The notes under the pieces: generated by a model
Seen by the model: the letters and a program-made list of their open reading frames with translations, nothing else
The model's database searches: none
What the model was told of the DNA's origin: nothing
DNA from: Raillietiella orientalis
Lineage: Eukaryota
Assembly: GCA_036172245.1 (NCBI GenBank)
Contig: JAYWIR010000107.1
Coordinates: 1 to 64,000 of the forward strand
Length of the DNA stretch: 64,000 nt
Direction of reading: 5' to 3'
Position numbers and translations under genes: made by a program
Part shown: in pieces, positions 33,394-64,000 of the stretch
Layout of the letters: every line of letters begins with the position of its first letter
Position numbering within the stretch: the first letter of the stretch is position 1

Positions 33394-33486
33394 TGGACAC
33401 CGACGATGTACACAAAACACCACACAGAAGAAAAAGCGCTTTTCTACTACTCTTTGGGGAGTGAAGGAAAAACACGTCCTCCTACT

Positions 33487-44700: not shown

Positions 44701-46268
44701 TAAGATGGTCCCAGTCTGCGAGTTCCCGGATGGCAAAGCCGCGAAGGAACTGGCGAAGATGCTCCGCCGCTTCCGGGTGACTCAGCCAATCCGCCGGCAT
44801 CCTCCAAACATTGTTTGGAGGTCCCTTCCCCGGCGGGAGTAGCTCGAACTCCAGCCTTTCATGGTCCGATAACGTGGATGGCACCCTGCCTCTCCTTCCC
44901 ACTCGCGAGAGTAGGTGTTTATCGAGGTAGAGGTGATCCACGCACCTTTCCAGTCCAGGCTCGCCGGCTTCCAAGTTACGCGCGTGCACCGACGCGCATG
45001 CCTCTTCCACCCGCGACCGTTCCGCCAGGGACCGCGTCTCGTTGGAAAGCAGGTGGACGTTGAAGTCCCCTGCGAAAAGATGCGCCACTCTGGCTCCAAA
45101 GTTTCAGAGCCATTGGCTCTCCAGCACGTCAAAGAACTCGATTCTTTCGACACGTCGATGAAAGCCGCTCGGCGCGTAGACGTTCGTCACGACGAGGTCG
45201 ATTGAATCTGACCACTTGAGTAAAAGTTGGCCCATTCGCCCTTCCTGGTCGAATCGAACGCTGCGCACCGCTCCCGCCATCCTACTATTGACGAGAAAAC
45301 CGACTCCGCACGATTGTGCAGAACCTTCTCGCCAGTGCAGGGTGCCACCCGCGCGCTGTTCGATTTCGGCAACCTCCGCATCGGAGATGTAATGCCTCTC
45401 CTGAAGGATCGCCAAATCGAAATGTCGCAGGGTGTCTGACACGTCGCGCCTCTTTCCGTCCCTGCGCAGCCCATTGACGTTCCAACAGGCTACGCTGAAT
45501 CGACGAAAAGTGGCGACTTCCTGCATTAAGGCTGGGAAGGTGAGCACAGATTTCTCGCCTTGTCCGGCGAGTGGTCACGAGACAGAGCGGTCGAACTCGC
45601 AGACTGGACATCTCCATTCGAAGCCGCACTGCTTGTTGCCGGTAGCTCAGAGGTGAGGTCCTTTTCCTCCTCTTTGCTCCCCAGCAACAGTTCCTCCTCG
45701 GCAACCACGCGCTTGCGGGTCTTAGGGAGGCGATTGCGCGGTTTCGGGCGGTTGTCGCGCTGTGTGCTCATTCTGTCGGACTCTGGATCAGAATCCGACA
45801 GTAGAGGGCTTGCCAGGCGCTGCTGCTGTTTCCCGGCAATAGGGAAATCGTTCGCTGCCTGTTTCCTAGCGCTTTCTGCAACTGCGGCTGGGACTTTCGT
45901 CCTTTTAGCCGCAGCAGCAGCTTCCCGCTCCAACCGCGACAGGACGACTGCGCAGGAGGAAAGAATCGCAATCTTTTTCTGGGAAGGTTTTGCGGGTTGC
46001 TTTCGCCCACACACCTTCACACAGAGCTGCGAAGACCTTGATGGTTTCTTTCTAATGATCTTTCTCACCTGCATACAGCCGTCTTCCTTCGCGTCGCAGT
46101 TATCTTTGCCATCCTGAAATGGCGCTGCTTCCACGGATGTGAGGGGCGTTGCCTTGGCTGCCTCTTGGAGTGCTGACTCCACGAAGGCGTAAGCAACTCC
46201 TTTAGCGATCGCGAGAGCCTTGCGCACGGGCTGTATCGCCGCCGCAGAACGAAAGGGAGGCGTGATTA
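41708..46268 (-). mobile_element. Element H (downstream part): subfamily III ORF1 C-terminus, ORF2 with frameshifts, 3' terminus
   Basis: TAATG at 45528-45524; ORFs 45104..45547, 42842..45088 and 42236..42754; hairpin at 41737-41711. Confidence 0.9.
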
Positions 46269-46364
46269 TTGCTAGTTTAAAACTATACCCAATACCCCGC
46301 AAAGGCAGTGTTTAAAACCACTGCCAAGGCAATTTTTGAGTGCCTTGAGAGGGCAAGTGTTTGA

Positions 46365-48237
46365 GTGAACGCCAGTGTGGAAAGAGTGCAACCGGGGACC
46401 ATCATCAGCAGCAGCAGCAGCGCCGAGAAGTCCACGGTGGAAGTCCTGCAGTCGTCCCGAGCAGCCGGAACAGCTGCCAGGATGCAGGCATCTGGAGTTG
46501 GAGGAGTGGTGAGGCCATCGTCCCCCATGGAAGCCATGGAGGTAACGTGCGGCAACGGCGAGGTGGCGGCAGGCATGCCGAGGATCGCGCCCGCGGCGGG
46601 CTTTGCTGCGCCAGCGGCGGTGATGCCAAGGGTCGTGCCCGCGGCGACGACGGCGAAGGTCGTGCCCGCGGCGGGGAAGGTCGCGCCTGCGGCGGCGATG
46701 CCGAGGGTGCCGCCCGCGGCGGCAACGGTGGCGACGTCGAGGGTTGCGCTCGCGGCGGCGGCGTCCCAGGCAGGACCCGCGGGCGTCCACGCGGTTCAGG
46801 GCGACACGCCATCTTGTTCGGCTGCGGCGGCGCAGCCCTTTTCCTATGCGTCGGTGGCGGCTGGACAAGCGAGTGTCCACCCACCAAGAAAATTCGGGAA
46901 GCCGCTATGCGGTAAAGTCCAAAAGGTGGATCGACCGATCGTGGAGTTAGGGCCGAATGTAAAGCCCATCATTTTCAAGACTAGGCTGATCAAGTTCAAT
47001 AATATCAGGGAGGTGTATCTGTCCCTCGATAAAACGGACATGAATTTTGATCGCATACAGGCGATCATACCAGCAAACAACGGGTTCACAGTCTTCACAG
47101 ACTGTGAAGAGATTAGAGAGCGATTGATCCAGAAGGGGATCAATATACAAGGACGGATGGTTTGTGGTATTGGCGAGATGCCATACACAACCGTCTTTTT
47201 AAACGGCATCTCCATCCTCACACCGCAACTAGCGGTGTGGAATTACTTGGAGCAGTTTGGAGAAGTTCTGGACCTTGATTTTCAGAACTTCTCTGGAAAC
47301 ATATTTTCTGGCGACATGATCGCAAAGATGAAGTTGAGGGAGGGAGCGGTGATCCCTGGATTGGCCGTTATTGACGAACAATCCCAGGGAGTGAATGTGC
47401 GTTACCGGCAACAACCGGTATTCTGCACCGGGTGCAAGCAGTTCGGCCACAGGGCCGGCGCTTGCCCAACTTGCCGCTGCTTTCGCTGCGGCAAAGTAGG
47501 ACATCGAGTCCGAAACTGCCCGCAGCCGGAGGTGTGCTCCTTCTGCAAAAAACACGGACATGCAAAATGGAACTGTCCGGAGTTTGAAAACTGCAGAAGG
47601 ATTCGAGGTCTCTCGAGGTTCGAGAAACATCAAGGAGGCCGAACAGCCTCAGAAGGCAGGAAGGCCGAAGAAGGTGAAAGAAGCCGTCCCGGTGTCGGCG
47701 GACGGCTTCATAGAAGTGGGAAAGAAGGGAAAGAGGAGGATGCTCGTCAAGGAGCAAGGAACTCCTCAAATCCTGGAAGCAGCAGAGCAGGAAGGCGAGA
47801 AGATGGAGGTAGCGCAAAAAGGCGCGAAGGAAGAGAGACAGGAAGCCACTAAAGTGTCGCAGGAGGCTCTGCAGACCACGGAGGAGTTGGCAACACTGGC
47901 GGAGATCATAGATGTGCAGAGCGGTCCTCAACAAGAGAAAATCTTGCAGAAGATCTGCACTGCACAAGAGAACATCAACCAGGTTGTAAAGGTCGCTGAA
48001 CGCGAGAAGTTAGAGGAACAGCTTCTCGACGTGAAGGCGAACTTCTGCGCCAAGGTCGAGATAGAGGCGCTATCTCGAAAATTGATCGCGCGGGCGGAAC
48101 ACTCTACGGAGGAGGCGGAAATTACCGACCTCACAGGTACGGAGAGTGACGCCGGCAGCGAGAAGCCCGCTGCTTCTTCGACATCTGGAAGAGCACGCTC
48201 TCCCAGACAGAAGAAGCTCAGGAAGGCCAAGAAATAG
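46365..48237 (+). pseudogene. ORF1 of element I, three CCHC knuckles, probable frameshift near 47600
   Basis: CTGCKQFGHRAGAC, CFRCGKVGHRVRNC and CSFCKKHGHAKWNC; the overlapping frame 47560..48237 carries DGFIEVGKKGKRR and ends 13 nt before the ORF2 ATG. Confidence 0.75.
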
Positions 48238-48250
48238 GTCTTCCCCTTTT

Positions 48251-51200
48251 ATGACCTCTTCCCTATCGACCGCCAGGAGGCTGAACATCGCCTCCTGGAA
48301 CGTAAACGGTGTGGTCGACCAGGGAAAAAGAAGAAGGAATGTGCGGACCATCGGACAACAAGACATCGTGTGCCTGCAGCAGACCCACAGGATGGGTCTC
48401 GAGATCAGCCAGCGAATGGAACGGCGATTCAACGGGCAGATGTTCGTCAGCGAAGGAGAACGGAACACGAAGGATGTGGCGGTGCTAATAAAGAACCACT
48501 TAGCCCCCACTATTCTGGAAGTGTTCTGTCCCCAACCCGGACGAACCATCGGCGTGCGACTGGCCTGGTCCGCAACTGTTCACCTCATCCTGATGAACGT
48601 GTACGGGCCGCACAGGCTAAAACATCGTTGTGCGGAGGCGCTGCATGCAGCACTCCGGCAAAAGGTCTCCCCTAAGGACGTCGTAATTGTTGCTGGCGAT
48701 CTCAACATCTTAGATCAGATCATTCATTCAGAAGACGCCAGAGGAAGGACGGCGTATCGGCGGTTATCGGACGAGTTCGGACTGGTCTGGCGAACAGCAA
48801 GCCACAAGCCGATCGATCACGTCCTGCACAGCACCGAACTTGGGAACCGCATCCAGGGGTTTCGCGACACTATGACTACGGTGTCCGATCACCCCCTGGT
48901 GCGGTTTTCCCTAAGAACGCAGAATCCTCGGCGGAGGCAAGGCCCCAGGGCGGCGCTCATCAGCATGCCCGCCTGGTTCGAAACCCATCCTGGACATCAG
49001 GCTGTCCTGGAGGCGATTCTGACGGCAACAACAATCCGAAGAGTCGCCGACTGGGACAGCCTGAAACACAGGATACACCTGTTTGCGCACATGCAGTTCG
49101 GGGATAGGCGCTTGAGGCAAGAGGCGTACCGGGAGCTGATCATCCAAGATCGCTCCCTCTCAAAGCACTTCTTTCAGTACGAGAGTCGGTACGTTTTCAA
49201 TAACATAAAAGGGGAAGTCGGCGTGCTGGAGAAGAGAAATCTGGCAACAGATATCTTCTGCATCCAGTACGACGGCCAAAAGCGACAGTCGTCTGAGGAC
49301 ATCGTGGATGCCTTTCACAGGCATTACACGAAACACTTCAGGCGACAACAGCTGTGTCGCTCTAGTCAACAGGCCTTCTTGAGCTATCTCGAGAATAGGA
49401 CCGACGACCTCCAGCGGAACAGACTGGAGGAGGAGTTCTCCGATGAAGAGGTGAAGACTGCGTTTGGGCAACTTCGCAAGGACGTGGCAGCGGGCCCTGA
49501 CAGTGTACCCATCACGCACTATCAGCGGTACCTGCACGCCTACCTGCGCTTGTTCTACCAGTTGACCCTTTGCATCCGGGAAGAAGGCAGACTACCTCAG
49601 TCCTTCTACGAGAGTCGGATGAGATTGCTGCCGGAAGGAGGCGACTCTACCCAGATCGCCCAATGGAGGCCAATCTCGATTCTAAACTCCGATGCCAAGT
49701 GGTTGGCGAAGATCTGGTCCAACCGCTTAGGCAAGGTCATGTCGAGGCTGATCTCTCCGGTCCAGACATGTGCAGTCCCAGGACGACACATGTCGGACAA
49801 TGTCAAGTGTGCCCAGGCCACTGTTGGACTCAGTCGATACGTCGGCGAGAACCTGGTGCTGGTGTTCACTGACATGGAGAAGGCTTTCGACTCCATCGAC
49901 CATGGGATGCTGCTGAAGGTTCTGGAGAAGCTAGGCCTTCCGGAACACTTTAGCAACTTCGTGAGGGTGGTACTCCAGAACCAGTGCTGCCAAATCAAAA
50001 TCAACGGCCAGGAGACGGCAGCAATCCGGATGGAACGGGGAGTACGGCAGGGCGATTCGCTAAGTCCGATGCTGTTCGTCATCTACATGGAGGCGTTGTC
50101 GTCCTTTATCGAGAAGAGCGGACGACTGAGCGGGATTACCATCGATGGCCAGCGTCTTACCCATCTGGCATACGCCGATGATCTACTCTCCTTCATCAAG
50201 GGAGAGAAAAATCAGCGTGCGTTTCTGGATGTGGTGGACCTGATGGAACAGGGCTTGGGATTAAAAATCAATTCCCAGAAGAGCCAGCTTTTGCCCGTCG
50301 GAATCCTGAACCTCTCCACTCTAACGGGTAGTGGATTCCGTACGGTGGACACGGCCAAGTACCTGGGTGTCTACATCGGCGACGACTCTGCGTTGAAGCT
50401 GCTGTGGACGGAAATCCTGGGGAAAACGGCCAAGGAAGCAGCCAAGTACACCCGAACGGACCTTGGGATGAAGCGAAAGGCCAACATATGGAACGAAGTA
50501 CTCCTTCCGAAAGTGCTCTTTGGGGCGGCCTTTGCGACGATGAACAAGGACACTTCTAGGGAGTTCGACAAGCTGCAAAGAAAAACACTGTGGGGCCACT
50601 ATCGCCCAAGAGTAAGACCGAAACCCCAGTGTCGTCCCAGGGAAGAAGGCGGTTCCGGGATGAAGTCGCTTGCACACTCCATAGAAATCATGGATACGCG
50701 ACACATCCTGGACATTGCCACTCACTGGGATGACTGGCCGTATGCGGCGCACAGGGCCTACGCGTTGTTGCTTAACAACTCGAAAGGCCTGATGACTGCG
50801 CTGCTAGGCAAAGTTGGGGAATGCATAACAATCGACCCGACCTGGAGGAGGATGCAACGGCTGGTGCGGAAGCACCGAATCAAGATCGTGCCGCGAAGCA
50901 GGGAACTCTGGCAGGACGAGTCCATCCTGGTGATCCCTTGGATGCTTCCTGTGCCGCCGGACACGAGAAGCTGGATCTACCAGCGGTCCAGAGTTACCCT
51001 ACTGCAAATCCAGGAGTGGAGGCGAGGAGGCTACCTACATCAAACTCGTATACTTCGGTATACAGAGATGATGTTAGGAAGGTTTACCCACAGGACCCGC
51101 GAAGTGTGGTTCAACCACAACGACTTCGCATGGTCGAGGGTAACCAGAACAAACCTCCGAAGGCTTATCCAAGAAAGCGACCGTGACACCAGTGCCCTCC

Positions 51201-51709
51201 AGGAAGCCACCGAACGCTACGGGAGTGAACGGTTCAACCTGTTAGCGATCGGCACGACGCTCTGGAGGAGTGATCTTCCGCCGGGCACCCAGGATGACCT
51301 CCTGATGTTTTATCACGGAGGAATCCAGAGCGGGTCCCGATTGCAGCACTTCACAGGAAGACGGGAAGACCAAGACTGCGCAGCATGTGGAGACGACGAC
51401 ACGAGACTTCACGTCTTGACGTGTCCCACACTGCTGCATGACTGGCTGATCCTGAAAAGGATCATAGGACTTACCAACAAGTCCGTTATGGAGATCCTCG
51501 CCGGGATGTTTCATGGGGATGGTAATGTTCTCTGTTACAATCCCATGGTGAGGACGACCATAGCCCTCTTCATCACCGCCATACTTGTGCGGTGGTCGAA
51601 AATGAGGAAAGCCAGGAGAGCCGCACCACCGATGGAGATCCTACAAGGGCTCCTGAAGAGGGAAATCGGTATTAGAAACTGTGGGAAAATCCAAGCCTGG
51701 ACGTACTGA
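48251..51709 (+). CDS. ORF2 of element I: APE endonuclease, reverse transcriptase, C-terminal Zn motif; uninterrupted
   Basis: SWNVNG, NVYGP, GDLN, IDH, SDH, WRPIS, DMEKAFDSI, GVRQGDSLSP, YADD, YLG and CAACGDDDTRLHVLTC motifs. Confidence 0.93.
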   Translation: MTSSLSTARRLNIASWNVNGVVDQGKRRRNVRTIGQQDIVCLQQTHRMGLEISQRMERRFNGQMFVSEGERNTKDVAVLIKNHLAPTILEVFCPQPGRTIGVRLAWSATVHLILMNVYGPHRLKHRCAEALHAALRQKVSPKDVVIVAGDLNILDQIIHSEDARGRTAYRRLSDEFGLVWRTASHKPIDHVLHSTELGNRIQGFRDTMTTVSDHPLVRFSLRTQNPRRRQGPRAALISMPAWFETHPGHQAVLEAILTATTIRRVADWDSLKHRIHLFAHMQFGDRRLRQEAYRELIIQDRSLSKHFFQYESRYVFNNIKGEVGVLEKRNLATDIFCIQYDGQKRQSSEDIVDAFHRHYTKHFRRQQLCRSSQQAFLSYLENRTDDLQRNRLEEEFSDEEVKTAFGQLRKDVAAGPDSVPITHYQRYLHAYLRLFYQLTLCIREEGRLPQSFYESRMRLLPEGGDSTQIAQWRPISILNSDAKWLAKIWSNRLGKVMSRLISPVQTCAVPGRHMSDNVKCAQATVGLSRYVGENLVLVFTDMEKAFDSIDHGMLLKVLEKLGLPEHFSNFVRVVLQNQCCQIKINGQETAAIRMERGVRQGDSLSPMLFVIYMEALSSFIEKSGRLSGITIDGQRLTHLAYADDLLSFIKGEKNQRAFLDVVDLMEQGLGLKINSQKSQLLPVGILNLSTLTGSGFRTVDTAKYLGVYIGDDSALKLLWTEILGKTAKEAAKYTRTDLGMKRKANIWNEVLLPKVLFGAAFATMNKDTSREFDKLQRKTLWGHYRPRVRPKPQCRPREEGGSGMKSLAHSIEIMDTRHILDIATHWDDWPYAAHRAYALLLNNSKGLMTALLGKVGECITIDPTWRRMQRLVRKHRIKIVPRSRELWQDESILVIPWMLPVPPDTRSWIYQRSRVTLLQIQEWRRGGYLHQTRILRYTEMMLGRFTHRTREVWFNHNDFAWSRVTRTNLRRLIQESDRDTSALQEATERYGSERFNLLAIGTTLWRSDLPPGTQDDLLMFYHGGIQSGSRLQHFTGRREDQDCAACGDDDTRLHVLTCPTLLHDWLILKRIIGLTNKSVMEILAGMFHGDGNVLCYNPMVRTTIALFITAILVRWSKMRKARRAAPPMEILQGLLKREIGIRNCGKIQAWTY

Positions 51710-51880
51710 TTCATCCTGAAGAGAATAGAAGACGACGCCCGGGACCAAACAGCAGGAAACCCACCATGAGTGCAGAACTTGTGAGAACCCAAGGACTTCA
51801 TAGTGTTAAAAAAAAGTGCTTATGGTATGGATGAGATTGTAGTGTGAATGGTTTTATAGAAAAATTTTAGAAAAATAAAT

Positions 51881-52485
51881 TTACCGCACCCCTCGTAGGA
51901 CTTGGGGAAAACTGCCGAGTCGGCGATGGAGCGACTGCATGCAGCGTGCTTTTGCTCGTCGCGACGCTGCTTTTTACGGCTTTCGTGGCCTTTGCAGAGG
52001 GGCCTGCGCTGCAGTTGGGCTGTCCGGAACTCGGAAGGGAGAACGGAACGGGGCAATAAGTCTTCGCACTGTTGCGATCTTCCTGTTTTCCTACCTTTCC
52101 CTCCATGGTGTTACGCAGATTTCCTGGTTCCTGGCTCGGAGAGGTGCCTGAGTGTTCGGCAGCGAGGGAGTGCACGGCACGCGTCAAATCCTCGCGCCCC
52201 TTTTTAATTGGCTTCCCCGCCGTGACTTCCCCCTTTCGCGACGTTGCGGGCGGGGATGCTTTCTTTTCATCCGCGGATCGCTCGTTTTTTTTTGCCTAGT
52301 TTTTGCAAACGACGTTTTCTATTGCATCCAGTGGCTTGCTCCTCCACACTATCCTGTGTACTCACCATGTTGTACTATGCTACTTGGCAGATACCACAGG
52401 AACACACAAGTGCAAGCTAAAACGCAGGCACAAAGTTGCCCGATCGTTGGCGCCGATGGACGCGCAAACACGTCTGCACTGTACG
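51881..52485 (-). mobile_element. Element H/K upstream part: 5' end plus mid-ORF1 (knuckle region apparently deleted)
   Basis: AGACGTGTTT at 52475-52466; LQKLGKKNERS...GKPIKKG resembles F ORF1 LQKFGKNARR...GEPQKKG. Confidence 0.7.
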
Positions 52486-52632
52486 AGCGCAAAAGATCGG
52501 ACAGATCTCCGGAGGGCGGCTATGGTACAGGTGTGGGAGACCGAAAAGTTGCGGTGTTGCCTACCTGATTCGGCCAGGCGTCAAGGCCGCGGCTCGGGGC
52601 GTGCGGTTCGACGATCACGGTCGTGTAAGCCA
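52486..52632 (+). pseudogene. P0: EN fragment of a subfamily I element (possible continuation of C)
   Basis: AQKIGQISGGRLWYRCGRPKSCGVAYLIRPGVKAAARGVRFDDHGRV follows on from where C stops (EQAQEI). Confidence 0.8.
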
Positions 52633-55580
52633 TTCACACCCGGGTGTGCCGGGGCATTTATTTCTTGGAAATAAAAATACATGGAATATCGCGTGGCGAA
52701 CTCGAAGGTTCACCACTCCAAAACAGCTTGCTGGTTACCGGCTCCATGCCGGAGAGGTCCTTCCGATGCGCGGGGATGGGAAATAAAGAAAAACAAAAAG
52801 AAACAAAAAGTTCAAATGTGGGGGAGGGACCAAATGTTGTAGGGGTGGGAGGGCCGGGAAGGGATCACGGTGCGCGTGGAAAGGTCCTCTAGATCCTATT
52901 CAGGATCCGCACAAGCTGAGTCCTTTCAGCGCCCAAGTGGCGCCACTTGCAGACACTGCGCGCGAAAAGGCGAGTCCAGTGTAAGGCGTTGCCGGTTGGC
53001 TGACGCCTTCTTCTGGTGGCGTTCCAAGCCGCCACTATTCCTCTGATGCAGCAGAGGACTGCTACACTAGGGGGCAGGGACAAGGCGTCACTACAGAAGA
53101 GGCGCCTGAAAACGTCCTTCGGGCCGCATCCACGCAAGTCCAGGATCGCCGCGAGACGATCCCACAGAGGGCGGAGGGCGCTACACTCAAGGAGAAGGTG
53201 GAGGAATGTTTCTTTTTCCCCACACCGGTCACAATTGGGATCCACAGCCCCCCGGGTGGTGTGGTGCAGGCGTGCTTTGAATGGTAATCCCCAGAGTACC
53301 ACAAGCAACGCCACATCCTGCCATTTCAGAGGAAGGGATGCACTGTTCCAGGAAGCTGGGGGCCACTTCATCTCCTCCGGAGATAGTCCGAGTAGCTCAC
53401 CCCAGCGTCGAATTCCGTTGGACGGGACGCTCGGCGTCGCAGCGTCAGCTAGCTGCCGAGATGTCCACGCCTTTATCGATTGTGTCCTGCCGCCTATAGT
53501 GCAGGACACGGTCCATTTCCTCTGCTCGCTACTGTCCCTGGCATTCACAAGGAAGGGCAGCACTGGGGCGAGGGGGGTTATCAAGGCCCACAGAAGCTTG
53601 TCGTGGGACTGCACGATCTCCTGCAGCGTCCAGCGGGCGTGCCTTTTCATACAAGTGTTCCTTGTGCCCGCCGGAACGTGGATCTTTTCCCAGGTGGAGA
53701 CTGACTCGTGCAACCAGGCGGAGTAGTTCCCTGGGAGGCAGGAGATCCAGGCGTTCTCCCGGACCGCAACGAAGATGCGTCGCAGCATAGAGCCACAGTA
53801 TGGTCTTCTGCAGACGCGCGCAGACAGAAACGACAAAAGTCCGCCGATTCCGCAGGCTCGTTGGGCCAGGAGGCGTGCTGGAACGCACCAAGGCGTGTCC
53901 CACAATTCCGCCACAAGGGCAAGAGTCCTGAATCCAAGTTGTAGTTCCATGCGCTCCAGCGTAAGTACGCCAAGTCCACCGTCCTTACGTGGAGCGCACA
54001 AGTCTTTGAGCCTCACACGGGACCTCCCTTTGCCCCAAAGGACTGTCCTCAGGAGGCCCGCTGCTCGTTTTCGGATAAAATAAGGGGCGGGGCAAACAAA
54101 AAGTAGGGGGCGAAGGAGGGGAGCCGCGAACGCGTTCCACACCGCGGCCCGTTCCTGCAAGTAGAACTTGCCTTCTTGGAACGGACTGATCGCCAACGCT
54201 GCCTTTTGGAGACGGTCGGACCAGGCTTCTGCTGCGCAGAAGTCCCCCAACGGTACGCCGAGGTACTTGAAGCACCTGCCCGTGGGGATCCCCAAACGGA
54301 TCCAGTCCGACCGTCCAGCCCACGCCGAAGCGACGAAGACCATGGACGACTTCGCCCTGTTCACCTCCAGGCCCGTCCCGCGGCGCAGCAACTCGAAGAA
54401 GTCCTCGAGTGCACTCGCCGGGGTGGACCCGGGAAGCAGCAGCTGAAGATCGTCTGCATAGGCCGACACGGCAGGCGTGCCGGCACACGAGCTCGGCAGG
54501 GCTGCCAGAGTTACCCTGTATGCCCTCAGCACCAACTCAAAGTAGATGCTGAAGAGCAAGGGGCTCAGGCTGTCACCCTGCCGGATGCCGCGGCGTACGG
54601 GCACGCCGTACACGTGCCGGCCGCTGAAACCAATATTGATTGACGCGTTGCGCCAGCAGGAGCGCAGGTAAGATTGAAGCACGGCAGGGAAACCCATGCG
54701 TTCCAGGAGCTCCAGAAGGAGATCCTGGTCGACGCAGTCGAATGCTTTGTGCAAATTGACCGCGACGGCAAAGGCTCCCGCCGAGTCCATCCCACCCTCT
54801 GCCCGATCTTCTTGGTCAGAGGGGGGCGCGAGGCTCCCTTGACCGTCCTGTGCAACGCGTTGTCGCAACTGCCACCATGAGCTGGCGAGGAGCAGGTTGG
54901 CCTCCATGGTTCGTCCGGGAACAGCATAGGTCTGCTCGGGACTCACCACGGAAGCGGCCACCCGCCCCAAACGCTCAGTCCACAACTTAGCATACAACTT
55001 TGCGTCCGCATTCACTACTGTGATGGGACGCCAGTTGCCAATGTTGCGTAAGTCTCCTGACTTCGGCAGGAGACGTACTTTAGCTGACCGGAACGAGGCT
55101 GGAACTTCGCCGTGTTCGCGGATCAGCGCACTTAACCTGAGCACCAGGGGGGCCAGCTCTGGCGCGAAGCGATGGTAAAACTCCGCGGGCAGGCCGTCCT
55201 CCCCTGGTGCCTTCCTTCTCTTGAGCCTGTTGATGGCGGAGATGATCTCCGCCATCGTGAACGGTTCCGCCAATCTGGAACGGTCCTCCTCCTTGAGTGC
55301 GGGAGCACCATCCGGCAGCAGGCGCTGCGCGAAATGGCGCTCAGGTGTTAGTGGCGCGTACAAGGAGGAATAAAACTCCCGCACGATGCGGCTTACCTGG
55401 GCTGGGCTGGAGCGTTCTTGGCCCTGATGATCCAGCAGGCAGGCCGAGCCTGACTGCCAGGCCTGCCTCTCCGCCTCAGCCTTAAATTCAGCCAGGCGAC
55501 GGACGTCGGGACGCCGGGAATAACGGCGCGCCTGGAGGTACGCCCGCTCGTTCCTGACACCCTTACCGAAGCCCGTGGAC
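52633..55580 (-). mobile_element. Element M1: ORF2 from GFG through RT and Zn motif (open to 52889) plus 3' terminus
   Basis: ORF 52889..55750 from GFGKGVRNER onward; YADD; CDRCGEKETFLHLLLEC; hairpin at 52662-52636. Confidence 0.9.
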
Positions 55581-55621
55581 GCGACCAAAAGACACGTCCG
55601 ATGGACGTGTCTTTTGGTCGC
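55581..55621. repeat. Perfect 19-bp inverted repeat (3-nt spacer) formed from the 5' end of element P1
   Basis: gcgaccaaaagacacgtcc-gat-ggacgtgtcttttggtcgc. Confidence 0.97.
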
Positions 55622-55698
55622 TCCGCCAACGCCTGTCTGGGAAGCAACCGGAGTTTTTTTAGTGTAGTCAGGTGTTAAGTGTGGGTTGTCGGTGTCCG

Positions 55699-57450
55699 AT
55701 GGCAGCCGTGCCAGAGGACACGGCGATGGATGTGGTTGTGGGGGAGGCAAGTCCTACCACAGGACCTACATCTATGGGGGCAATAGTCCCTGGAACGTCT
55801 TCGCAGCCGGCGAAGACTTGGAGTGAAATGGTCGCCGCCCCCAGTGCGGAGGCCATGGCAGAGGAAGCCGCCTATCGGGCCTCTGAATACAAGCCATCGC
55901 TTGTATACAAGGTAGGCCCTTTGTTTGAAGGAAACACGGCGCGCTCTTTCAGCAGAGCGCTACAAAATGCTAATGTCCGTGAGGAAGATCTGGACGGTCT
56001 GTGCGTGCTCAGCGGGGCGCAGCGGGTTGAGCTGGTGTGCAAGAGCATCAGCCTAGCCGATCGCCTTATAAATACCCCGCTGATCATGGACGGCCGTAAG
56101 ATCTTCCCGGTGTCAATGGACCACTCGGTAGTGGTCCACTTGACAGGAATATCCAAGCGCATGACGCGCACTGCCGTAAAAGCAGAATTAAGTAAGTACG
56201 GGGACGTACACGCGCTGTGGCCGAAGCCCACAATCTTTGAGGGCTACGGACGCCACTTCGGGGGCTTGGCTGCGGCACGCGTAACCCCAAAAAACGAAGC
56301 GAAGCTACCCCACAAACTTGAGGTCGCGGGAGAACTAGTAGACCTCTGGTATGCTGGCAAGCCACGGTATTGCGGCTACTGCGATGCGGTCGGACACATC
56401 CGTAAGAGGTGCCCGAACATCGTATGCTACTTGTGCGGGGAGAAGGGACACGTCCGTCGCGTGTGCCCTAAACGCCCCACCCCAATTTCCTCGGCCGCCA
56501 AAAAGGCGCAAGCGAAACGCGCGGGGAAAGAAAAATTAGAAAACCGTGAAACTGGCCGAGAAAAGCTGCCAATAACCCAAGCTTCAAGCGCAGCATCGGA
56601 GAAAAATCTTCCCGAAACCGCAGAGGGTGAACAGGGCTGGCAGCTAGTCAAAGCCAAAAAAGAAAAAAAGGACAAGCATGTCCCGAAGAAAGGAGAGAAG
56701 GCGGCGGCCGGAACAAAAGCTCAATCCGTGTCGCGCGTAAAAACTCTCCGAGAATGCACGGTTACGCTGGAGCGCATTGACGTTCCCGCCGACACCACCG
56801 GAGGCGATACGGCTTCGATCGATTTTCCCGCCGCGACGAATGCGCGCGAAAACCCACCCCCCGTTTGCGAAGAGGGTCAGCCGGACGACAAAATCGCCGA
56901 AACCAAGGACGCAGCCTTCGAGAAGGCCGCCGAGGAGCTTGCGGCAACGCTTGCCGAACGCGAGAACCCTTCGCGAAAGGGGTTGCGTAGGCCGGCAGCG
57001 GCTAAAGTGGCCCCCGCAGGTGAGTCGGACCGGGAGGCCGGAAGTGCATCCTCCTCTGCGGAAGCACCACCAAGGAAAGCGGGGCGAAAATCCCAGAAAC
57101 CCCGAAGGTGCATTGCGCCTCCGCGCGAGGGGGATGCAATGGTGGAGGAACCAGTGGATGGCAGCGTGGGAGCCCAAGTCGGGCATCACCCACGTGCGGA
57201 AGCCGAAGAGGAGGCGACTCCAATGGAGGACGGTAACCAAGGGTCAGCAATGCCCTCTGAAACCGCCGAACCTGAACCACCCGCACCAATGGATGTGGGC
57301 CAACAGGTACGAACAACACCCCCTTCGCACGGGCAGCCGGAGACGTCGGCACGAAAGAAGGATGGGGAGTTGGTGGGCAAGACGCCAACCCCGTCCAGCG
57401 ACCCGCCCCAAAAGGTGGCGGGAGCTCCACCGCCAGGTTCCCAGGAATAA
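55699..57450 (+). CDS. ORF1 of P1 (two CCHC knuckles); open
   Basis: CGYCDAVGHIRKRC, CYLCGEKGHVRRVC; first ATG at 55699. Confidence 0.88.
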   Translation: MAAVPEDTAMDVVVGEASPTTGPTSMGAIVPGTSSQPAKTWSEMVAAPSAEAMAEEAAYRASEYKPSLVYKVGPLFEGNTARSFSRALQNANVREEDLDGLCVLSGAQRVELVCKSISLADRLINTPLIMDGRKIFPVSMDHSVVVHLTGISKRMTRTAVKAELSKYGDVHALWPKPTIFEGYGRHFGGLAAARVTPKNEAKLPHKLEVAGELVDLWYAGKPRYCGYCDAVGHIRKRCPNIVCYLCGEKGHVRRVCPKRPTPISSAAKKAQAKRAGKEKLENRETGREKLPITQASSAASEKNLPETAEGEQGWQLVKAKKEKKDKHVPKKGEKAAAGTKAQSVSRVKTLRECTVTLERIDVPADTTGGDTASIDFPAATNARENPPPVCEEGQPDDKIAETKDAAFEKAAEELAATLAERENPSRKGLRRPAAAKVAPAGESDREAGSASSSAEAPPRKAGRKSQKPRRCIAPPREGDAMVEEPVDGSVGAQVGHHPRAEAEEEATPMEDGNQGSAMPSETAEPEPPAPMDVGQQVRTTPPSHGQPETSARKKDGELVGKTPTPSSDPPQKVAGAPPPGSQE

Positions 57451-58252
57451 CACCTGGACTCGCCTGTCGCCGTCGGATCCGCGCGGCCAGTTGGAATGTT
57501 AACGGGCTGCGCGACGACGGAAACAGACGAGATACAGCAGCCACCTTGCGAGATTTCGACCTGGTACTTTTGCAGGAGATCCACGTGATCACCGCAAAAG
57601 ACGCCCAGGAGATCGAAACGATTGCGGGAGGGCGGTTGTACTGGCGATGCGGCGCCCGCAACACTTGTGGGGTCGCGTTCTTCCTAAAGCCAGCCATTAA
57701 CGCGGCCGTGAAGGGCGTGCGCTTTGGGGACGACGGACGGATCGGCCAACTGATTCTCAGATGGTCCGATTCGATCGACCTCATCGTCACCAATGTGTAC
57801 GCTCCTAGCGGTAAACAGGGATACCAGCAGCGCAACGCGTTACTGGAAACCTTGAAGCGCGAATGGCTGGTGGACGCGGACGTGCGAAAGGCGCATCTGA
57901 TAGCAGGGGATTTCAACGTCCGTCTGCTCTCAGATCAGCCCGGAGCACAGGGTAACGCGATCAACGAGTTGTGCGCCGCCATGCGCGCGCGCAACTTGTT
58001 GACAGAAATAAGCGGGATGGTCAGCAGCGTGGACCACGTCTTCCTCGACGAAGACCTGTGCACACGGGTCGGAAAACGAGGGACACTTGGATCGACGCTG
58101 TCGGACCATTCCCGGTTAATTTTCGAGATGCGGCCTCGCGAAAAAGGACCGCCATCCAGGGACTGGCGTCTGCCGGGAGACTGGACGCGACTCTCAGGTG
58201 CGAAGGAACACCTTCGCGAATACCTGAGAGGCGTCACGCTCTGGAATCTCCA

Positions 58253-61172
58253 TTGAAACCCGGGTGCGCCGGGACGTTTATTCTCACGAATAAACCTGTA
58301 CAACCTGTGACTGGACCAGTAGCCCAGCCACGCCCTGGAAAGATATAGCTTGCCGGGCTACCGGTGCGCAGACCGACGCGGTCGACCTCAGCAGCAGAGG
58401 GGAGGAAGAACGAAACAAAAAGAAAACAGAAAATAAACAAAAATCAGGGAGGGAGCGGGAAGGGATCACACTCTGCTGGGAGGGTCCGTCATCCTCTGGA
58501 GGATGCCGGCAAGCTGTTTCTGCTTGTGTGGTTCCAGATGGGGCCATCGCGTCGCCATCCTGAGGAAACGGGCGGCATACACGTTGGCATCCCTGTCGCT
58601 GGATCCTCCCGTCGCTTTGCTCCATGCCACGACGATCCCGCGTAGGCAGCACAGGGCTGCAAGCGAGGCCGTTGGAGGCAGGGCGTCACGGACGAAGAGG
58701 GGGCGCAAAGCGTCTCTAGGGTTGCCTCCGGGGATCCCCAGGGCTGCGGCAAAGCGTTCCCACAAGGGACGGAGGGCAACACAATCCACTAACAGGTGGG
58801 GGAGGTATTCCCTCTCCCCGCACCTGACACAATTAGGGTTGACACCCCCCCGCGTCCAGTGGTGTCGGCGGGCGTTGCAAGGAAGCCCCCAATGCAACAC
58901 CAGCAGTGCCGACTGTTGCGACTTCATGGGGAGGGTGCGCGAGTCCATGAGCACCGGGGGCCACTCGAGATGTTCCTCTGGAACATCCAGTAGCCCTCCC
59001 CAGCGCAACAGTCCATTTGGGGTGGTCCTCGGGGTCGCAGCGTTGGTGAGCTGACCCGTTCTCCAATCCCCGATCTTCTTTGCCCTGCTGGCGATCTTGA
59101 CAGTAACCTCCCATTGTGCCGCGACGTCGCTGCCCAGATGTTCCCGTAGGGTAGGCAGTACCGCAGCAAGGGAGGTTCTTTGTGCCCACGCTCTCCTTCG
59201 GGGATTCTCGATGATTTCTCGGAGCGTGCGGTGGACATGCGGCCAGAACAGAGCTATTCGCTCGTGTTGCGGGCTCTGCTCCTGAATCATCGCCCACGTG
59301 CGGACGGTTTCCTGCAACCAGGCAGGACCGTTCGCGGGGCGTACGAGGATCCGCGCCGAGTTGTTCTTCACGAGCTTGGCCGCCCTCCGAAGTTGAAGTC
59401 CGCAGTGGCAGATGGGGCTTCGGAGTGCAAAGTAGGACGAGAGTCCCGCATTGCCGGTGGCCCCCTCGACGAGGAGACGTGCAGGGAGGCACCAAGGGGT
59501 GCACCAATTTTCTGCCATAAAGGCAACAACTTGGAACTGGAGCTGTAGCTCCAGCCGCTCCAACGTTACGAGGCCCAGACCACCATCCCGACGAGAAGCG
59601 CACAAGTCCGAAAGACGGACTCGGGGCCTCCCTCTGCCCCAAAGGGCGATCCTCAGGAGGTCCTTCGTCCTCTTCTTTGACTCCGCTGAGGGGGGGCTAG
59701 CAAAAAGCAAGGGGCGAGGGAGGGGAGCCGCAAACGCGTTCCACGCCGCGGCCCGTTCATGCAGGAAGAACCTGCGGTCCTGGAACGGGCCGATCGCCGC
59801 CTGAGCCTTCTGAAGGCAGCCGGACCACGCTTCCGCAGGGGAGTAATCCCCCAACGGCACACCAAGGTACTTGAAGTACCTCACCGTGAGGATCCCCAAA
59901 CGGACCCAGTCCTGCTGCCCTGCCCACGCCGCTCCGACTGGCATTACGGACGACTTCGCCCTGTTCACCGTCAGTCCTGTTCCCCGACTCAGCAGGTCAA
60001 AGAAGTCCTCGACCGCCGAGGCCGGGGTGGACATAGGCAGCAGCAGCAGCAAGTTCGTCCGCGTACGCCGAAACCGCAGGCGTACCGGGACAATCGCACG
60101 GCAGGCGCGCCAGAGTCTTCCTGTACGCTCTCAGCACCAATTCGAAATAGGCGCTGAAGAGCAAGGGGCTGAGGCTGTCTCCCTGCCGTATGCCGCGTCG
60201 CACCGGTACGCCGTACACGGTGGATCCACTAGAAAGAACATTAATAAGCGCGTAGCGCCAGCTGGAGCGCTGGTAAGCCTGCAAAGAGGCCGGGAATCCC
60301 AAGCGTTCCAGAAGCTCCAGAAGGAGATTCTGGTCGACGCAATCGAATGCTTTATGCAAATCGACTGCGACCTTGAGGGCTCCTCTCCCCTCCCGACCAT
60401 CCCGTCCCCCACCGACGGACGCACCGGAATTCCGGTTGCTTATTATGTTCCTTCCTTGTTGGAGCTCTAACCATGTGGAAGCGTGGAACAGGTTCGCCTC
60501 CATACTTCGCCCGGGATCAGCATATGTCTGTTCCGAGCTGATGAAGATGTTGGCGACCCGTCCCAGGCGCTCTGCCCACAGCTTGGCTAGCAACTTGGCG
60601 TCCGCATTCACTATTGTGATGGGACGCCAGTTGTTCATGCTCCTAAGGTCTCCTCCCTTAGGGAGGAGCCGCACCTTTGCTGAACGAAACGAGGTGGGAA
60701 CGTCACCTGTTTCGCGGATCAGCAAGGTGAGCTGATGTACCATGGGAGTAAGCTCTGCCGCGAAAGTTTGATAAAACTCCGCAGGCAGGCCGTCCTCTCC
60801 TGGAGCCCTTCGCCTCTTGAGCTTTCCGATGGCCGAGATGATCTCGCCCATCGTAAAAGGCTCGACGAGGTTCCTTTTCTCCTTCTCCCCGATTGCTGGA
60901 GCACCTTCCGGAAGCAGGAGTCGTGAGACAGTATGCTCCGAAGGCGCCCTGGCGTACAGGGAGGAGTAAAATTTCCTCACTATCCTGCGTTTCCAAGCGA
61001 GAACCGAGTGCTCCCGGCCCTGGTCGTCCAGCAAGCTGGCCGACCCGGATTGCCAGGCTTGCTTCTCGGCTCCCGCTCGATACTCTGCTAACCTGCGCAT
61101 GTCGGGGGTTCTCGCGTAACGTCGGGCCTGAAGATAGCACCTTTCGTTACGCGGCCCCTCCCCAAATCCCTC
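58253..61172 (-). mobile_element. Element M2: ORF2 from GFG to the 3' terminus, one frameshift just after YAD
   Basis: ORFs 59997..61409 (from GFGEGPRN) and 58466..60052; hairpin at 58282-58256. Confidence 0.9.
58256..58282 (-). terminator. Conserved 3'-terminal AATAAA plus CCCGG-loop-CCGGG hairpin; representative of 8 copies
   Basis: AATAAACGTCCCGG-CGCAC-CCGGGTT; equivalents at ~14786, 18812, 21918, 25272, 37002, 41711 and 52636. Confidence 0.8.
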
Positions 61173-61272
61173 TCCTCGAGAGCGGACGTGTTTTTCCGGC
61201 GCTCCGCGAACGAGCAGCGGAAAGCGGTTTTTTTTTGGTTCAGTGTGTGCTTTTTCACATCGTTGGTGTCCG

Positions 61273-63027
61273 ATGGCATCGCTGCCAGAGTACACCACGA
61301 TGGAGGTAGTCGTAAGGGAGGCTAGCCCCCCCCCCCCACGACCTACAGAATCAGCGGCATCCGCCCCGGAATCGCCCTCGTCGCCCAAGACGAGGAGCTG
61401 GAGCGCCATGGTCGCCGCGCCTAGCGCGGAAACCTTGGCTGAGCAAGCGGCCTACAGGGCCTCCGGATATAAATCATCCCTGGTTTATAAGGTAGGAAAC
61501 CTGTTCGACGGTCGCACCGCGCGTGCCTTTAGCAAGGCACTACAGGAATTTCCCGTGCGTGAGGAGGATCTTGACGGCCTCGCCGTACTCAGCGGGGGGC
61601 AACGCGTGGAGGTCGTCTGCAAAGACGTAGCCCTAGCGCAGCGCCTCATCAACACCCCGCTGAATGTGGCTGGCCGAAAGATCCTACCCGTTAGCATGGA
61701 CCGCTCCGTAGTGGTTCATCTAACGGGGATCACGAACCGCATGACGCGTTCTGCGGTGAACGCGGAATTGAGGAAATACGGAGATGTGCACGTGCTGTGG
61801 CCAAAGCCAACCATTTTAGACGGCTATAACAGCCTCTTTGGTGGCCAGGCAGCAGCGCGTGTCACTGTGAACGAGGGTGCCGGGTTACCCCACAAACTGG
61901 AGGTCGGGAAGGAGCCCGTCGACCTCTGGTACGTGGGGAAACCCCGCTATTGTGGCTACTGCGATGCAGTAGGGCATGTGCGCAGGCGGTGCCCGAATAT
62001 CGAGTGCCACTTGTGCGGGGAAAAGGGACACGTCCGTCGTGTGTGCCCTAAACGCCCCACCCCGGTGCCACCTGCTGCCAAAAAGGCACAGGCGAAAAAG
62101 ATGAATAAGGTCGAAAGACCTCATCGCGAGAATGGCCGGCCCCAGCAGCCTTCTCCTCCTCCTCGAACCCAGGCGGCGGCGGAAAAAACCGCGAAAGACG
62201 CGGGCAAGGAAGAAGGATGGACGCTCGTAAAGGCCAGAAAAGAACCCAAAAAGGGTTCGCAAGAGAAGGCGGAGAAAAAGACGGTCGCGAAGGCGAAAAA
62301 ACCTGGTCCGCGATCTAAAACTCTCCGCGAGTGCTCGGTAGCACTGGAGCGCATCAGCGTTCCCGAGGCTGCCACCCGGGGCGACGAGCCTCTTCTCGCC
62401 GTTTCCGCCGCGCCCGACGTTCGCGACGGCGAACCCTCTGTTTGCACAGAGGGTGAAACGCGCGACGCGCTCGCCACCGGCGAGGACGCCGCCTTCGCGA
62501 AGGCGGCGGAGGAGCTCGCGGCCACGCTGGCTGAGCGTGAGAACCCCTCGCGCAAGGCCGTGCGAAGGCCGGCTCCAGTAAAGAATGCCCCCGCAGGTGA
62601 GTTAGAACTGGGGGCCGGAAGTACATCCTCCTCCTCGGAAGCACCCCCCCGGAAGACGGGACGCAAGTCCCAAAAGCCGAGGAAGCGCCTCCCCTCCACG
62701 AACGAGGAGGAGAAGCAGGAAGTCGCCGGCAGCGAGGGAATCCCGGAGGGAGAGCTCCCTCGCGCGGAAGCGGTCGAGCAGGACACCCCCATGGAGGAGG
62801 GTGAGCAGGGGGGCGAAATCCCCCCTGCCGTCGCGGACCCTGAGGAGCCCACCCCTATGGAGGAGGGCCAGCAGGTAGGCGCGACCCCACCTGAGGGTGA
62901 ACCGCCCGACGCGCCGTCACCGATGGAAGAGGGTGACCAGGTGCTAGAGGCACCTGTCCCTCCTCCTCCACCTAGCGTCCCGCCCCAACAGGTGGCGGAC
63001 GCCGCACAGCCGATTTTCCAGGAATAA
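61273..63027 (+). CDS. ORF1 of P2 (two CCHC knuckles); open
   Basis: CGYCDAVGHVRRRC, CHLCGEKGHVRRVC; first ATG at 61273. Confidence 0.88.
   Translation: MASLPEYTTMEVVVREASPPPPRPTESAASAPESPSSPKTRSWSAMVAAPSAETLAEQAAYRASGYKSSLVYKVGNLFDGRTARAFSKALQEFPVREEDLDGLAVLSGGQRVEVVCKDVALAQRLINTPLNVAGRKILPVSMDRSVVVHLTGITNRMTRSAVNAELRKYGDVHVLWPKPTILDGYNSLFGGQAAARVTVNEGAGLPHKLEVGKEPVDLWYVGKPRYCGYCDAVGHVRRRCPNIECHLCGEKGHVRRVCPKRPTPVPPAAKKAQAKKMNKVERPHRENGRPQQPSPPPRTQAAAEKTAKDAGKEEGWTLVKARKEPKKGSQEKAEKKTVAKAKKPGPRSKTLRECSVALERISVPEAATRGDEPLLAVSAAPDVRDGEPSVCTEGETRDALATGEDAAFAKAAEELAATLAERENPSRKAVRRPAPVKNAPAGELELGAGSTSSSSEAPPRKTGRKSQKPRKRLPSTNEEEKQEVAGSEGIPEGELPRAEAVEQDTPMEEGEQGGEIPPAVADPEEPTPMEEGQQVGATPPEGEPPDAPSPMEEGDQVLEAPVPPPPPSVPPQQVADAAQPIFQE
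62785..62945 (+). repeat. Three ~66-nt coding repeats (PMEEGxQ, 22-aa period) at the ORF1 C-terminus
   Basis: TPMEEGEQGG / TPMEEGQQVG / SPMEEGDQV; the same triplet is in E (31730-31885) and degenerate in P1. Confidence 0.8.
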
Positions 63028-64000
63028 CACCTGGGCTCGCCTGTCGCCATCGAAACCGCGTGGTTAGTTGGAACGTCAACGGGCTGCGCGACGACGGCAA
63101 CAGACGAGATACGGCCGACACCCTGCGTGACTTCGACCTGGCCCTGCTGCAGGAGATCCACGTGATCACCTCGGCAGACGTCCAGGAGATCGAGGCGATC
63201 GCGGGGGGTCGACTGTATTGGCGATGCGGCGCCCGCAACACCTGCGGGGTCGCGTTCTTCGTCAAGCCGGCCATCGACGCTGCCGTGAAGGGCGTACGCT
63301 TTGATGACGACGGTCGGGTCGGTCAGCTGATTCTCAGCTGCTCCGACTCGATCGAATTGATCGTCACGAACGTGTACGCCCCGAGCGGAAAAGGGGGATA
63401 CAGCGACCGTACCAGGCTGCTGGAAACCCTGAAACGCGATTGGCTGGCAGACACGAATGTGCGGAAGGCACACCTGATAGCTGGAGTCTTCAATCTCCGT
63501 CTGCTGTCAGGTGAGCCCGAAGCACCAGAACGCACGGCCAACGAGTTGTGCGCTGCCATGCGCACGCGCAACTTGTTGGCAGACGCGGAGGGAATGGACC
63601 GCAGCATCGACCACTTCTTCCTGGATGTCGACCTGTGCTCGCGGGTCGGCAAACGGGGAAAAGTTGCGTCGACGCTGTCGGACCATTCCAGGATCATCGC
63701 CGAGGTTTGCCCGCGCGACAAAGGACCCCCGTCCAGGGCGTGGCGGCTGCCTGGGGACTGGACGCGGCTCTCAGGTGCGAAAGAACGCCTTCGCGAATTC
63801 CTGAGAGGCGTCACCCTCCGCAGTCTCCAAGACTGGGACCTCTTCAAGGCCTCGGTCCGCGAGTTCTGCGAGGAGTTTCCCCTGCAGCGCCTGCCCCCCG
63901 GATTCGGGGAGGGGGCTCGGAACCAGCGGGCTTATCTACAGGCCCGCCGGTACGAGAGGACCCCGAATGTCCGTCGCCTCGCGGAATATCGAGCCGGGGC

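Follow-up and report, generated by a model that had tools for sequence, protein, structure and literature searches.

How a retrotransposon can go on making the protein of its second open reading frame (ORF) once the start codon of that frame has disappeared is the question raised by a group of long interspersed nuclear elements (LINEs) in a 64,000-nucleotide stretch of Raillietiella orientalis DNA (positions 1 to 64,000 of the forward strand of contig JAYWIR010000107.1, assembly GCA_036172245.1; this whole stretch is called the window below). From 13 to 64 kb the window is a nest of GC-rich LINE copies in both orientations, each element having an ORF1 with CCHC zinc knuckles and an ORF2 with an apurinic-type endonuclease (EN) followed by a reverse transcriptase (RT). 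Two sister subfamilies stand side by side there as a natural experiment, one with a UAAUG overlap between the ORF1 stop and the ORF2 start, the other without an AUG and nevertheless with an EN under selection. The comparisons presented here indicate, from coding sequence, that the EN of subfamily II has long been kept functional while lacking its own start codon, and the explanation favoured for it, tentatively and with a probability a little short of even, is that ORF2 would be expressed through an alternative spliceosomal intron giving an ORF1–ORF2 fusion.

The ORF2 starts were located by searching for the pattern that codes for WNVNG, which gave nine in the window; the junctions, read letter by letter where so marked, and the ORFs adjoining them in two copies of subfamily II (P1 and P2) are the following.

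55699-57450, plus strand: ORF1 of P1, 583 codons from the ATG at 55699, with zinc knuckles.
57447-58256, plus strand: endonuclease part of P1 ORF2, open to 58256, where the copy ends.
57448-57450, plus strand: TAA stop of the P1 junction, subfamily II, followed by CA (letters read).
57450-57452, plus strand: ACA codon of P1 on the aligned place of the ATG; the preceding codon in the ORF2 frame is ATA, 57447-57449.
61273-63027, plus strand: ORF1 of P2, with its TAA stop at 63025-63027.
63024-63998, plus strand: endonuclease part of P2 ORF2, open to the window end, with GVFN in place of GDFN.
63025-63027, plus strand: TAA of the P2 junction, subfamily II, followed by CA, with the ACA at 63027-63029 (letters read).
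31161-31646, minus strand: junction and endonuclease start of copy E, subfamily II, with TAA at 31643-31645 and ACA at 31641-31643 (letters read); interrupted after GDFN by copy F.
38740-38744, minus strand: TAACC junction of G, a decayed copy of subfamily II (letters read).
18643-18647, plus strand: TAATG junction of C, subfamily I (letters read).
29172-29176, minus strand: TAATG junction (letters read) of F, subfamily I, whose ORF1 and first 556 ORF2 codons are intact.
45524-45528, minus strand: TAATG junction of H, subfamily I (letters read).
21535, minus strand: junction of D, a C-like copy of subfamily I, reading TTATG, with the stop lost and the ATG kept (letters read).
48235-48237, plus strand: TAG of the junction of K, a third family, followed by a 13-nucleotide spacer and the ATG at 48251 (letters read).

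In every copy, ORF2 lies in the −1 frame relative to ORF1. The TAATG overlap that the first-pass annotation of this DNA had reported for C, F and H is present in all three, and its further observation that P1, P2 and E read TAACA, and G TAACC, at the aligned position is borne out both by the letters and by the DNA and protein alignments, in which the ACA or ACC of subfamily II sits gap-free on the ATG of subfamily I. An ATG is thus absent from the junction in all four subfamily II copies of the window, and the feature typical of SART1, the telomeric LINE of silkworm, namely an ORF2 AUG overlapping or abutting the ORF1 stop, is found in C, F and H and is not found in subfamily II. The first in-frame ATG is codon +177 in both P1 and P2, past the GDFN (P1) or GVFN (P2) at +152, in agreement with the earlier remark that it falls after this motif; in E, none occurs over a 204-codon stretch of the ORF2 frame, which continues into the inserted copy F after GDFN (+152), and the earliest one in G is codon +100. 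Upstream of the ACA or ACC the ORF2 frame is open for 17 codons in P2, 17 in E, 12 in G, and 58 in P1, and these codons contain no ATG either. Since the four copies of subfamily II are related by descent, the shared ACA represents a single inherited state rather than four events, and ACA/ACC would most simply be the ancestral state of this subfamily. The motif TTCCCAG stands just 5′ of the stop at six of the nine ORF2 starts; a TTC(C)CAG motif had been attributed to all subfamilies, and this stands for those six, with TTTCCAG as a variant in P2, and fails for D, which reads TTCCCGG, and for K, which lacks the motif.

Pairwise ratios of nonsynonymous to synonymous substitution (dN/dS), calculated among P1, P2, and E by the Nei–Gojobori method, point to a protein-coding history of the ORF2 frame. 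For the EN, dN/dS is 0.25 between P1 and P2 (dS 0.58; 267 codons), 0.22 between P1 and E (dS 0.59; 159 codons), and 0.34 between P2 and E (dS 0.30; 160 codons), values which answer the reservation of the first-pass annotation that the EN of subfamily II might be free of purifying selection; for ORF1 the P1–P2 value is 0.24 (dS 1.2; 579 codons). The uninterrupted stretches of the ORF2 frame extend over 326 codons in P1, between the upstream stop and the truncation, and 341 in P2, up to the window end. On these values, the persistence of the ATG-less state over a dS of 0.3–0.6 in the EN, or about 1.2 in ORF1, under purifying selection on the EN exceeds what chance would give. The ancestral status of ACA/ACC, taken together with this selection, leads to the view that the EN has long remained functional with no start codon belonging to it. 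The GDFN motif is catalytic in this enzyme family, and the P2 copy itself, which has GVFN at about 63483-63494 (plus strand) against the GDFN of P1, E, and F, is probably inactive. A separate observation concerns the zinc-knuckle region of ORF1 (about 56404-56490 in P1, codons 235-263), where P1 and P2 share 83–97% of their nucleotides in 12-codon windows and where third-position identity is 0.8–0.9, against 0.52 over ORF1 as a whole; this nucleotide conservation could reflect a constraint at the RNA level or gene conversion.

The first-pass annotation had named three possible mechanisms for the expression of such an ORF2, non-AUG reinitiation, −1 frameshifting to a fusion, and use of the motif before the stop as a splice acceptor, without choosing among them. 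The last is the one that gains most from the present analysis, because an in-phase candidate donor is found in P1, P2, and E and is absent from the ATG-bearing copies. All GT sites between 13 and 64 kb, on both strands, were scored with a metazoan weight matrix not derived from this host, and the resulting features of subfamily II are given below.

57017-57025, plus strand: putative 5′ splice site of P1, CAG/GTGAGT, with exon 1 ending at 57019 in phase 1; 8.6 bits.
57020-57444, plus strand: putative alternative intron of P1, GT..AG, 425 nucleotides, which encodes the C-terminal tail of ORF1 in unspliced RNA.
62597-63021, plus strand: putative intron of P2, 425 nucleotides, with donor CAG/GTGAGT and acceptor TTTTCCAG.
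31649-32072, minus strand: putative intron of E, 424 nucleotides, with donor AAG/GTGAGT.
39187, minus strand: homologous donor position in G, AAG/GTGATA, also phase 1, weak (<4 bits).
13305-13424, minus strand: homologous donor region in A, a subfamily II copy with ORF1 only, reading CCG/GTGAGT, with its G at 13364.

The sequence signals, their phase, and the openness of the joined frames are, like the selection on the EN, directly observed. The donors of P1, P2, and E occupy homologous positions, 427–428 nucleotides 5′ of the ORF1 stop, and account for three of the seven occurrences of AGGTRAGT in the whole window, both strands included, and for three of the only four sites that score at least 8 bits among 5507 GT sites (8.4–8.6 bits); the fourth, at 30883 in F, falls in phase 0. 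Of the copies that bear the ATG, C and D lack any donor reaching 4 bits within 600 nucleotides 5′ of the stop, H has no phase-1 donor within 780 nucleotides, and the phase-1 sites of F reach just 4.2 and 4.7 bits. The putative exon 1 measures 1321 nucleotides in P1, 1324 in P2, and 1321 in E, in phase 1 in all three, and the putative exon 2 opens with GA after TTCCCAG, so that a Gly codon would lie across the joint and be followed by the ORF2 frame. In this way, about 440 codons of ORF1 would be joined in frame to ORF2, and the joined frames, which continue into WNVNG and the endonuclease, run without stops for 710 codons in P1, 767 in P2, and 603 in E. At the donor itself, the 12-codon windows that open at codon 436 and at codon 440 have the same third base in 7/7 of the codons that specify the same residue in P1 and P2, compared with 0.52 over the whole of ORF1 (n=348), and the donor is spelled in minority codons (GGT, 18% of Gly; GCA, 18% of Ala; TTA, 5% of Leu). 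The acceptor has a pyrimidine fraction of 0.65–0.76, corresponding to the 81st–96th percentile among 6525 AG sites, and its CAG is followed at base +1 by G in subfamily II but by C in subfamily I. A loss of one nucleotide in E falls inside the putative intron, with the result that the unspliced ORF1 of this copy terminates at codon 533 and not at about 583; its spliced frame stays open. As for other joints considered, a splice removing all of ORF1 in subfamily I was rejected, the F donor at 30883 being inside ORF1 coding sequence and in phase 0, which leads to an immediate stop; trans-splicing to TTCCCAG, which was also considered, would not on its own provide an AUG in frame. In the AT-rich flank of the window, two AGGTAAGT sites (6133 and 6689, minus strand) resemble the usual 5′ splice sites of a gene of the host. 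The element E, for its part, is preceded in frame by a fragment of a subfamily I-like ORF1 (33393-34668, minus strand) whose end lies some 10 codons short of the homologue of the subfamily II donor position.

Under the splicing hypothesis, a donor would have been gained by an ancestral element with UAAUG, in which the TTCCCAG within the hairpin was already similar to a 3′ splice site. The unspliced RNA would serve as source of the full-length ORF1 protein and as template for transposition, while a fraction of the transcripts would lose the intron of 424–425 nucleotides, from MAG/GTGAGT, some 440 codons into ORF1, to TTCCCAG/G, three bases 5′ of the ORF1 stop. The last G of exon 1 and the following GA would form the Gly codon, the ORF2 frame would go on as I/V-T-P-G-L-A ... 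WNVNG, and ORF2 would be made as a fusion to the N-terminal, RNA-binding part of ORF1, starting at the ORF1 AUG. Because the splice route would supply the ORF1 AUG, the old UAAUG restart codon, retained in the sister subfamily I, would be free to drift, and may have drifted to ACA or ACC. The hairpin around the stop, which in subfamily II also surrounds CAG/G, would keep splicing inefficient and ORF2 levels low, and the fusion protein would join the unspliced, ORF1-coated RNA in trans, as it would have to do because the genomic copies retain the intron; the occurrence of splicing, its efficiency, and this assembly in trans are all proposed from the sequence signals. The restriction of both the in-phase donor and the ATG loss to subfamily II would follow from such a route. 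In its wider form, the proposal, which is put forward with rather less than even confidence, is that of a LINE needing the host spliceosome, in which an intron in ORF1 would yield a fusion mRNA of the gag-pol type in replacement of the ancestral UAAUG restart, with TTCCCAG co-opted as 3′ splice site. The carriage of an intron might also help the element to evade host silencing of intron-less mobile DNA, an idea suggested by the title of a paper on HUSH (PMC8770142).

A number of points weigh against the splicing hypothesis. The intron is retained in 4/4 of the junction-bearing subfamily II copies, and no intron-less copy occurs in the window (n=4). The proteins of LINEs usually work in cis, on the RNA that encodes them, so that a protein translated from spliced RNA would be expected to copy this spliced form. 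The putative intron also codes for protein in the ORF1 frame and is under selection there (dN/dS 0.36 over 140 codons of the ORF1 tail), and splicing could therefore only be alternative; no clear branch point was found within it, and the putative 3′ splice site lies inside a predicted stem. Subfamily I keeps TTCCCAG without a donor, which leaves the conservation of the motif unexplained by splicing and implies another role there. The donor of the decayed copy G is weak, and the donors of the other copies are situated in a generally conserved block with a mean column identity of 83%; moreover, the donor test was made post hoc, with a weight matrix that does not come from this host. A precedent for a splicing route among LINEs was not found in the full-text literature searched, which also tells against it, and splicing of human LINE-1 (L1) is reported to inhibit retrotransposition, the spliced copies being dead ends (PMC5860796). 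The 743 contigs that map on 44001-64000 from DNA run X1, a run holding 13% of the sampled words, contain no skip of 425 nucleotides among the 15 of 43 joints listed, and none of the rows listed, which include 40 of 3154 differences, lies on the P1 or P2 junction, a result uninformative either way.

For the RNA around the stop, independent minimum free energy (MFE) folds of 75 nucleotides were obtained in eight copies of subfamilies I and II; in P1 they give two hairpins.

57398-57425, plus strand: hairpin SL1 of P1, in the MFE fold 5′ of the stop.
57441-57457, plus strand: hairpin SL2 of P1, CCAGG / 7-nucleotide loop with UAA / CCTGG, whose 5′ arm overlaps TTCCCAG (57438-57444), the putative 3′ splice site.

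Hairpins of the SL2 type, with the ORF1 stop in the apical loop, are predicted in 8/8 copies, and those of the SL1 type in 7/8, the MFE fold of G being the one without it. The stems vary by lineage: that of SL1 is CCCGCCUC/GAGGCGGG in C and D, UGCUCGC/GCGAGCA in F, CUCGCC/GGCGAG in H, and CCCGCC/GGCGGG-like in subfamily II; in SL2, UUCCC pairs with GGGAA in subfamily I, with an additional inner stem of 3 bp that holds the UG of the AUG, and (C)CCAGG pairs with CCUGG(G) in subfamily II around the UAA-bearing loop of 7 nucleotides. This change of SL2 register coincides with the loss of the AUG. An RNAalifold consensus on the gap-free alignment is weak (−6.72 kcal/mol, with double changes at 4/17 pairs), although column-wise covariation is an unfair test because the hairpin registers differ between lineages, and the junction hairpins are regarded as plausible predictions.

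These structures bear on a reading considered possible, if on the whole rather unlikely, in which ribosomes ending ORF1 at UAA, held by the local RNA structure, would restart in the −1 frame at AUA, through an AUAA overlap, or at another codon near the stop. Besides the hairpins, non-AUG termination-reinitiation of this kind, which is a live rival to splicing, is in agreement with the UAAUG found at the aligned place in C, F, and H, with the retention of the ATG in D even though its stop is lost, with the near-cognate AUA at position −1 in three of the four subfamily II copies, and with the unspliced state of all the copies observed, as expected from a cis-acting route on unspliced RNA. It also has precedents in the UAAUG coupling of SART1 (PMC3894237, PMC5972666), in the AUG-independent translation of L1 ORF2 (PMC11485995), whose start is reported to tolerate any sense codon (PMC1965478), and in restart of the TURBS type (mediated by a termination upstream ribosome-binding site), which is described as reaching up to 45% of the wild-type level at near-cognate codons (PMC10275272). 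Nevertheless, the ATG is kept in all four subfamily I copies, and since these represent three deeply diverged lineages the AUG seems to matter in the family; reinitiation would have to explain why it was kept there and lost in subfamily II. ACA and ACC are each two positions away from AUG, no near-cognate codon is common to the four copies, E having GUA at −1, and the L1-like Zorro3 is reported to require its ORF2 ATG (PMC1965478). The folding energy of the junction windows is unexceptional within these elements (z-score ranks 5/97, 8/101, and 24/137), and the in-phase consensus donor would have to be a coincidence, estimated at about 1 in 100 from the motif density of the window. It is also conceivable that both splicing and reinitiation take place. 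The −1 position of ORF2 would suit, in addition, a −1 slip at the stop, by which tRNA-Glu in the P site (on GAA/GAG, with UAA in the A site) would re-pair on GGA and AUA ACA would then be decoded, giving a full ORF1–ORF2 fusion; this is thought very improbable. The sequence G_GAR_UAA on which it would act is present in 4/4 subfamily II copies and absent in subfamily I, where CAG or CCU precedes the stop, and the re-pairing would need a single G-U pair, at the middle position. The canonical X_XXY_YYZ heptamer is missing from the overlap in all seven junctions scanned (0/7), however, so that the frameshifting named in the first-pass annotation loses ground, and the predicted hairpin, which surrounds the site and is not placed 5–9 nucleotides downstream, cannot, on that account, be a classical stimulator of frameshifting. 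A precedent for such a slip in LINEs was not found, and the passages of the frameshifting review that bear on it (PMC5009743) name just the gag of HeT-A, together with open questions for TART and L1. Ribosome hopping was rejected, as no GAA/GAG landing codon, by visual inspection, is shared by the copies.

It may finally be that the junctions require no special mechanism, the four copies being dead relics, or subfamily II being mobilised in trans by ATG-bearing relatives with its ORF2 untranslated, a reading that is judged improbable. None of the copies is intact: P1 ends at 58256, P2 has GVFN, E contains the inserted F and lacks one nucleotide, and G is frameshifted. Against this stand the dN/dS of 0.2–0.34 for the EN and ORF1 across a dS of 0.3–1.3 and the uninterrupted ORF2-frame stretches of P1 and P2, which together imply a divergence of the lineages under selection, as coding elements that already lacked the ATG.

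The comparison with known systems underlines how far subfamily II departs from each of them. SART1 resembles the elements of the window in being bicistronic, in the overlap of its ORF1 stop with the ORF2 start, and in the effect of a nearby RNA structure on ORF2 translation (PMC3894237, PMC5972666), and its UAAUG is exactly shared with subfamily I; subfamily II differs in having no AUG at or near the overlap, and the structure reported as required in SART1 is downstream, whereas the hairpins predicted here are upstream of and around the stop. Human L1, which gives its name to the superfamily concerned, can also produce ORF2 without its AUG (PMC11485995, PMC1965478), but this AUG is naturally present, after an inter-ORF spacer of 63 nucleotides (PMC5972666), and its dispensability was demonstrated by mutation, whereas in subfamily II the loss is natural and maintained over a long divergence. 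The TURBS of caliciviruses and influenza B shares with the present junctions the UAAUG/AUGA overlap, an upstream structure, tolerance of near-cognate codons, and low efficiency (PMC10275272); it is defined, however, by a motif complementary to 18S rRNA and is viral, not from a LINE, and the upstream structure of the present junctions is a predicted hairpin. With respect to splicing, the genomic copies of Ogre from Medicago and EVADE from Arabidopsis keep a functional intron, and alternative splicing makes the mRNAs needed (PMC12786077), although both are long terminal repeat (LTR) elements that package their RNA into particles, unlike LINEs. In human L1, splicing between internal donors and acceptors can occur and the spliced RNAs can be retrotransposed, as spliced integrated retrotransposed elements (SpIREs; PMC5860796); splicing is harmful there, whereas in subfamily II it would be a productive, in-frame route to ORF2. 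A LINE dependent on an intron, or making an ORF1–ORF2 fusion by splicing, was not found in a search of the full-text literature.

Translation of LINEs' second ORF is a long-standing open question, whose mechanism is called unknown in passages of the reviews devoted to it. If the splice route is correct, subfamily II would be, as far as the literature search shows, the first intron-dependent LINE to be found, and it would contradict the view, derived from human L1, of splicing as solely harmful to LINEs; if reinitiation is correct, AUG-independent translation of ORF2 would be a natural and evolutionarily stable state, beyond a laboratory result.

The window elements are assigned, from sequence, to the L1/Tx1 group of LINEs with an apurinic-type EN, because the intact ORF2 of the K family (1152 residues, 48251-51706) is closest to human L1 ORF2p among solved structures (best PDB match, E 4.8e-50; R2, E 4.6e-25); likewise, the best PDB matches of the P2 EN are L1 EN chains (E 4e-6). 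In Pfam, Exo_endo_phos is matched by P1 (E 1.8e-13) and P2 (2e-9), and together with RVT_1 by F, H, and K; zf-CCHC is found in P1 ORF1 above the Pfam cutoff (E 7e-6) and more weakly in P2 and E, and an ORF2 fragment at 52889-55753 (minus strand) gives a weak zf-RVT match under the cutoff. The RT part of subfamily II is visible solely through the continuation of E at 25149-22291. Protein searches gave a single weak match for the P1 EN against longer proteins (E 1.5e-4), and 322 matches from mixed taxa for the K RT region, with about 31% identity in the top rows and, among the 120 matches listed, up to 37% at partial coverage. The G+C content is 43–49% in the first 12 kb of the window and 51–64% from about 13 kb to its end; in the former part, an AT-rich, decayed retroelement of another kind (2548-4122, minus strand) has C2H2 zinc-finger and RT motifs and is R2-like by eye, and its ORF had no relatives in the protein search. 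Close protein relatives were accordingly not found for any of the three queries, the P1 EN, the K RT, and the R2-like ORF, in the collections searched. A metagenome scan with the EN alignment returned 267 relatives, 80 of which were kept, with a top identity of 30%; one of them (L001) is an unrelated L1-like element bearing its own ATG, and the remaining 79 of the 80 look like exonuclease III genes, judging from their scores and long contigs.

Concerning the arrangement of the copies, F (ORF1 from 31096 downwards, ORF2 29174-27507) is nested in the endonuclease of E right after the GDFN codons, over a span from 31160 to about 25270 on the minus strand, and the ORF2 of E resumes at about 25268, which suggests that the window elements insert into one another. 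Directly 5′ of K ORF1 lies a complete gene for the U4 small nuclear RNA (snRNA; 46216-46352, plus strand; Rfam, 83 bits), which points to a source organism that is a eukaryote possessing a spliceosome. Some LINEs of the Tx1 group target snRNA genes, and contigs of run X1 link the 3′ end of K (51911) to positions 46254/46257 within U4, with 18–21 other letters between, so that K may be in tandem with U4 genes or may target them. The ORF1 of this element (46365-48237, plus strand) is split in two overlapping frames, 46365-47852 and 47500-48237, next to its intact ORF2; K is the best-covered element in the run, in whose contigs small insertions are seen at 47900-47905, and this copy may carry a recent frameshift in ORF1.

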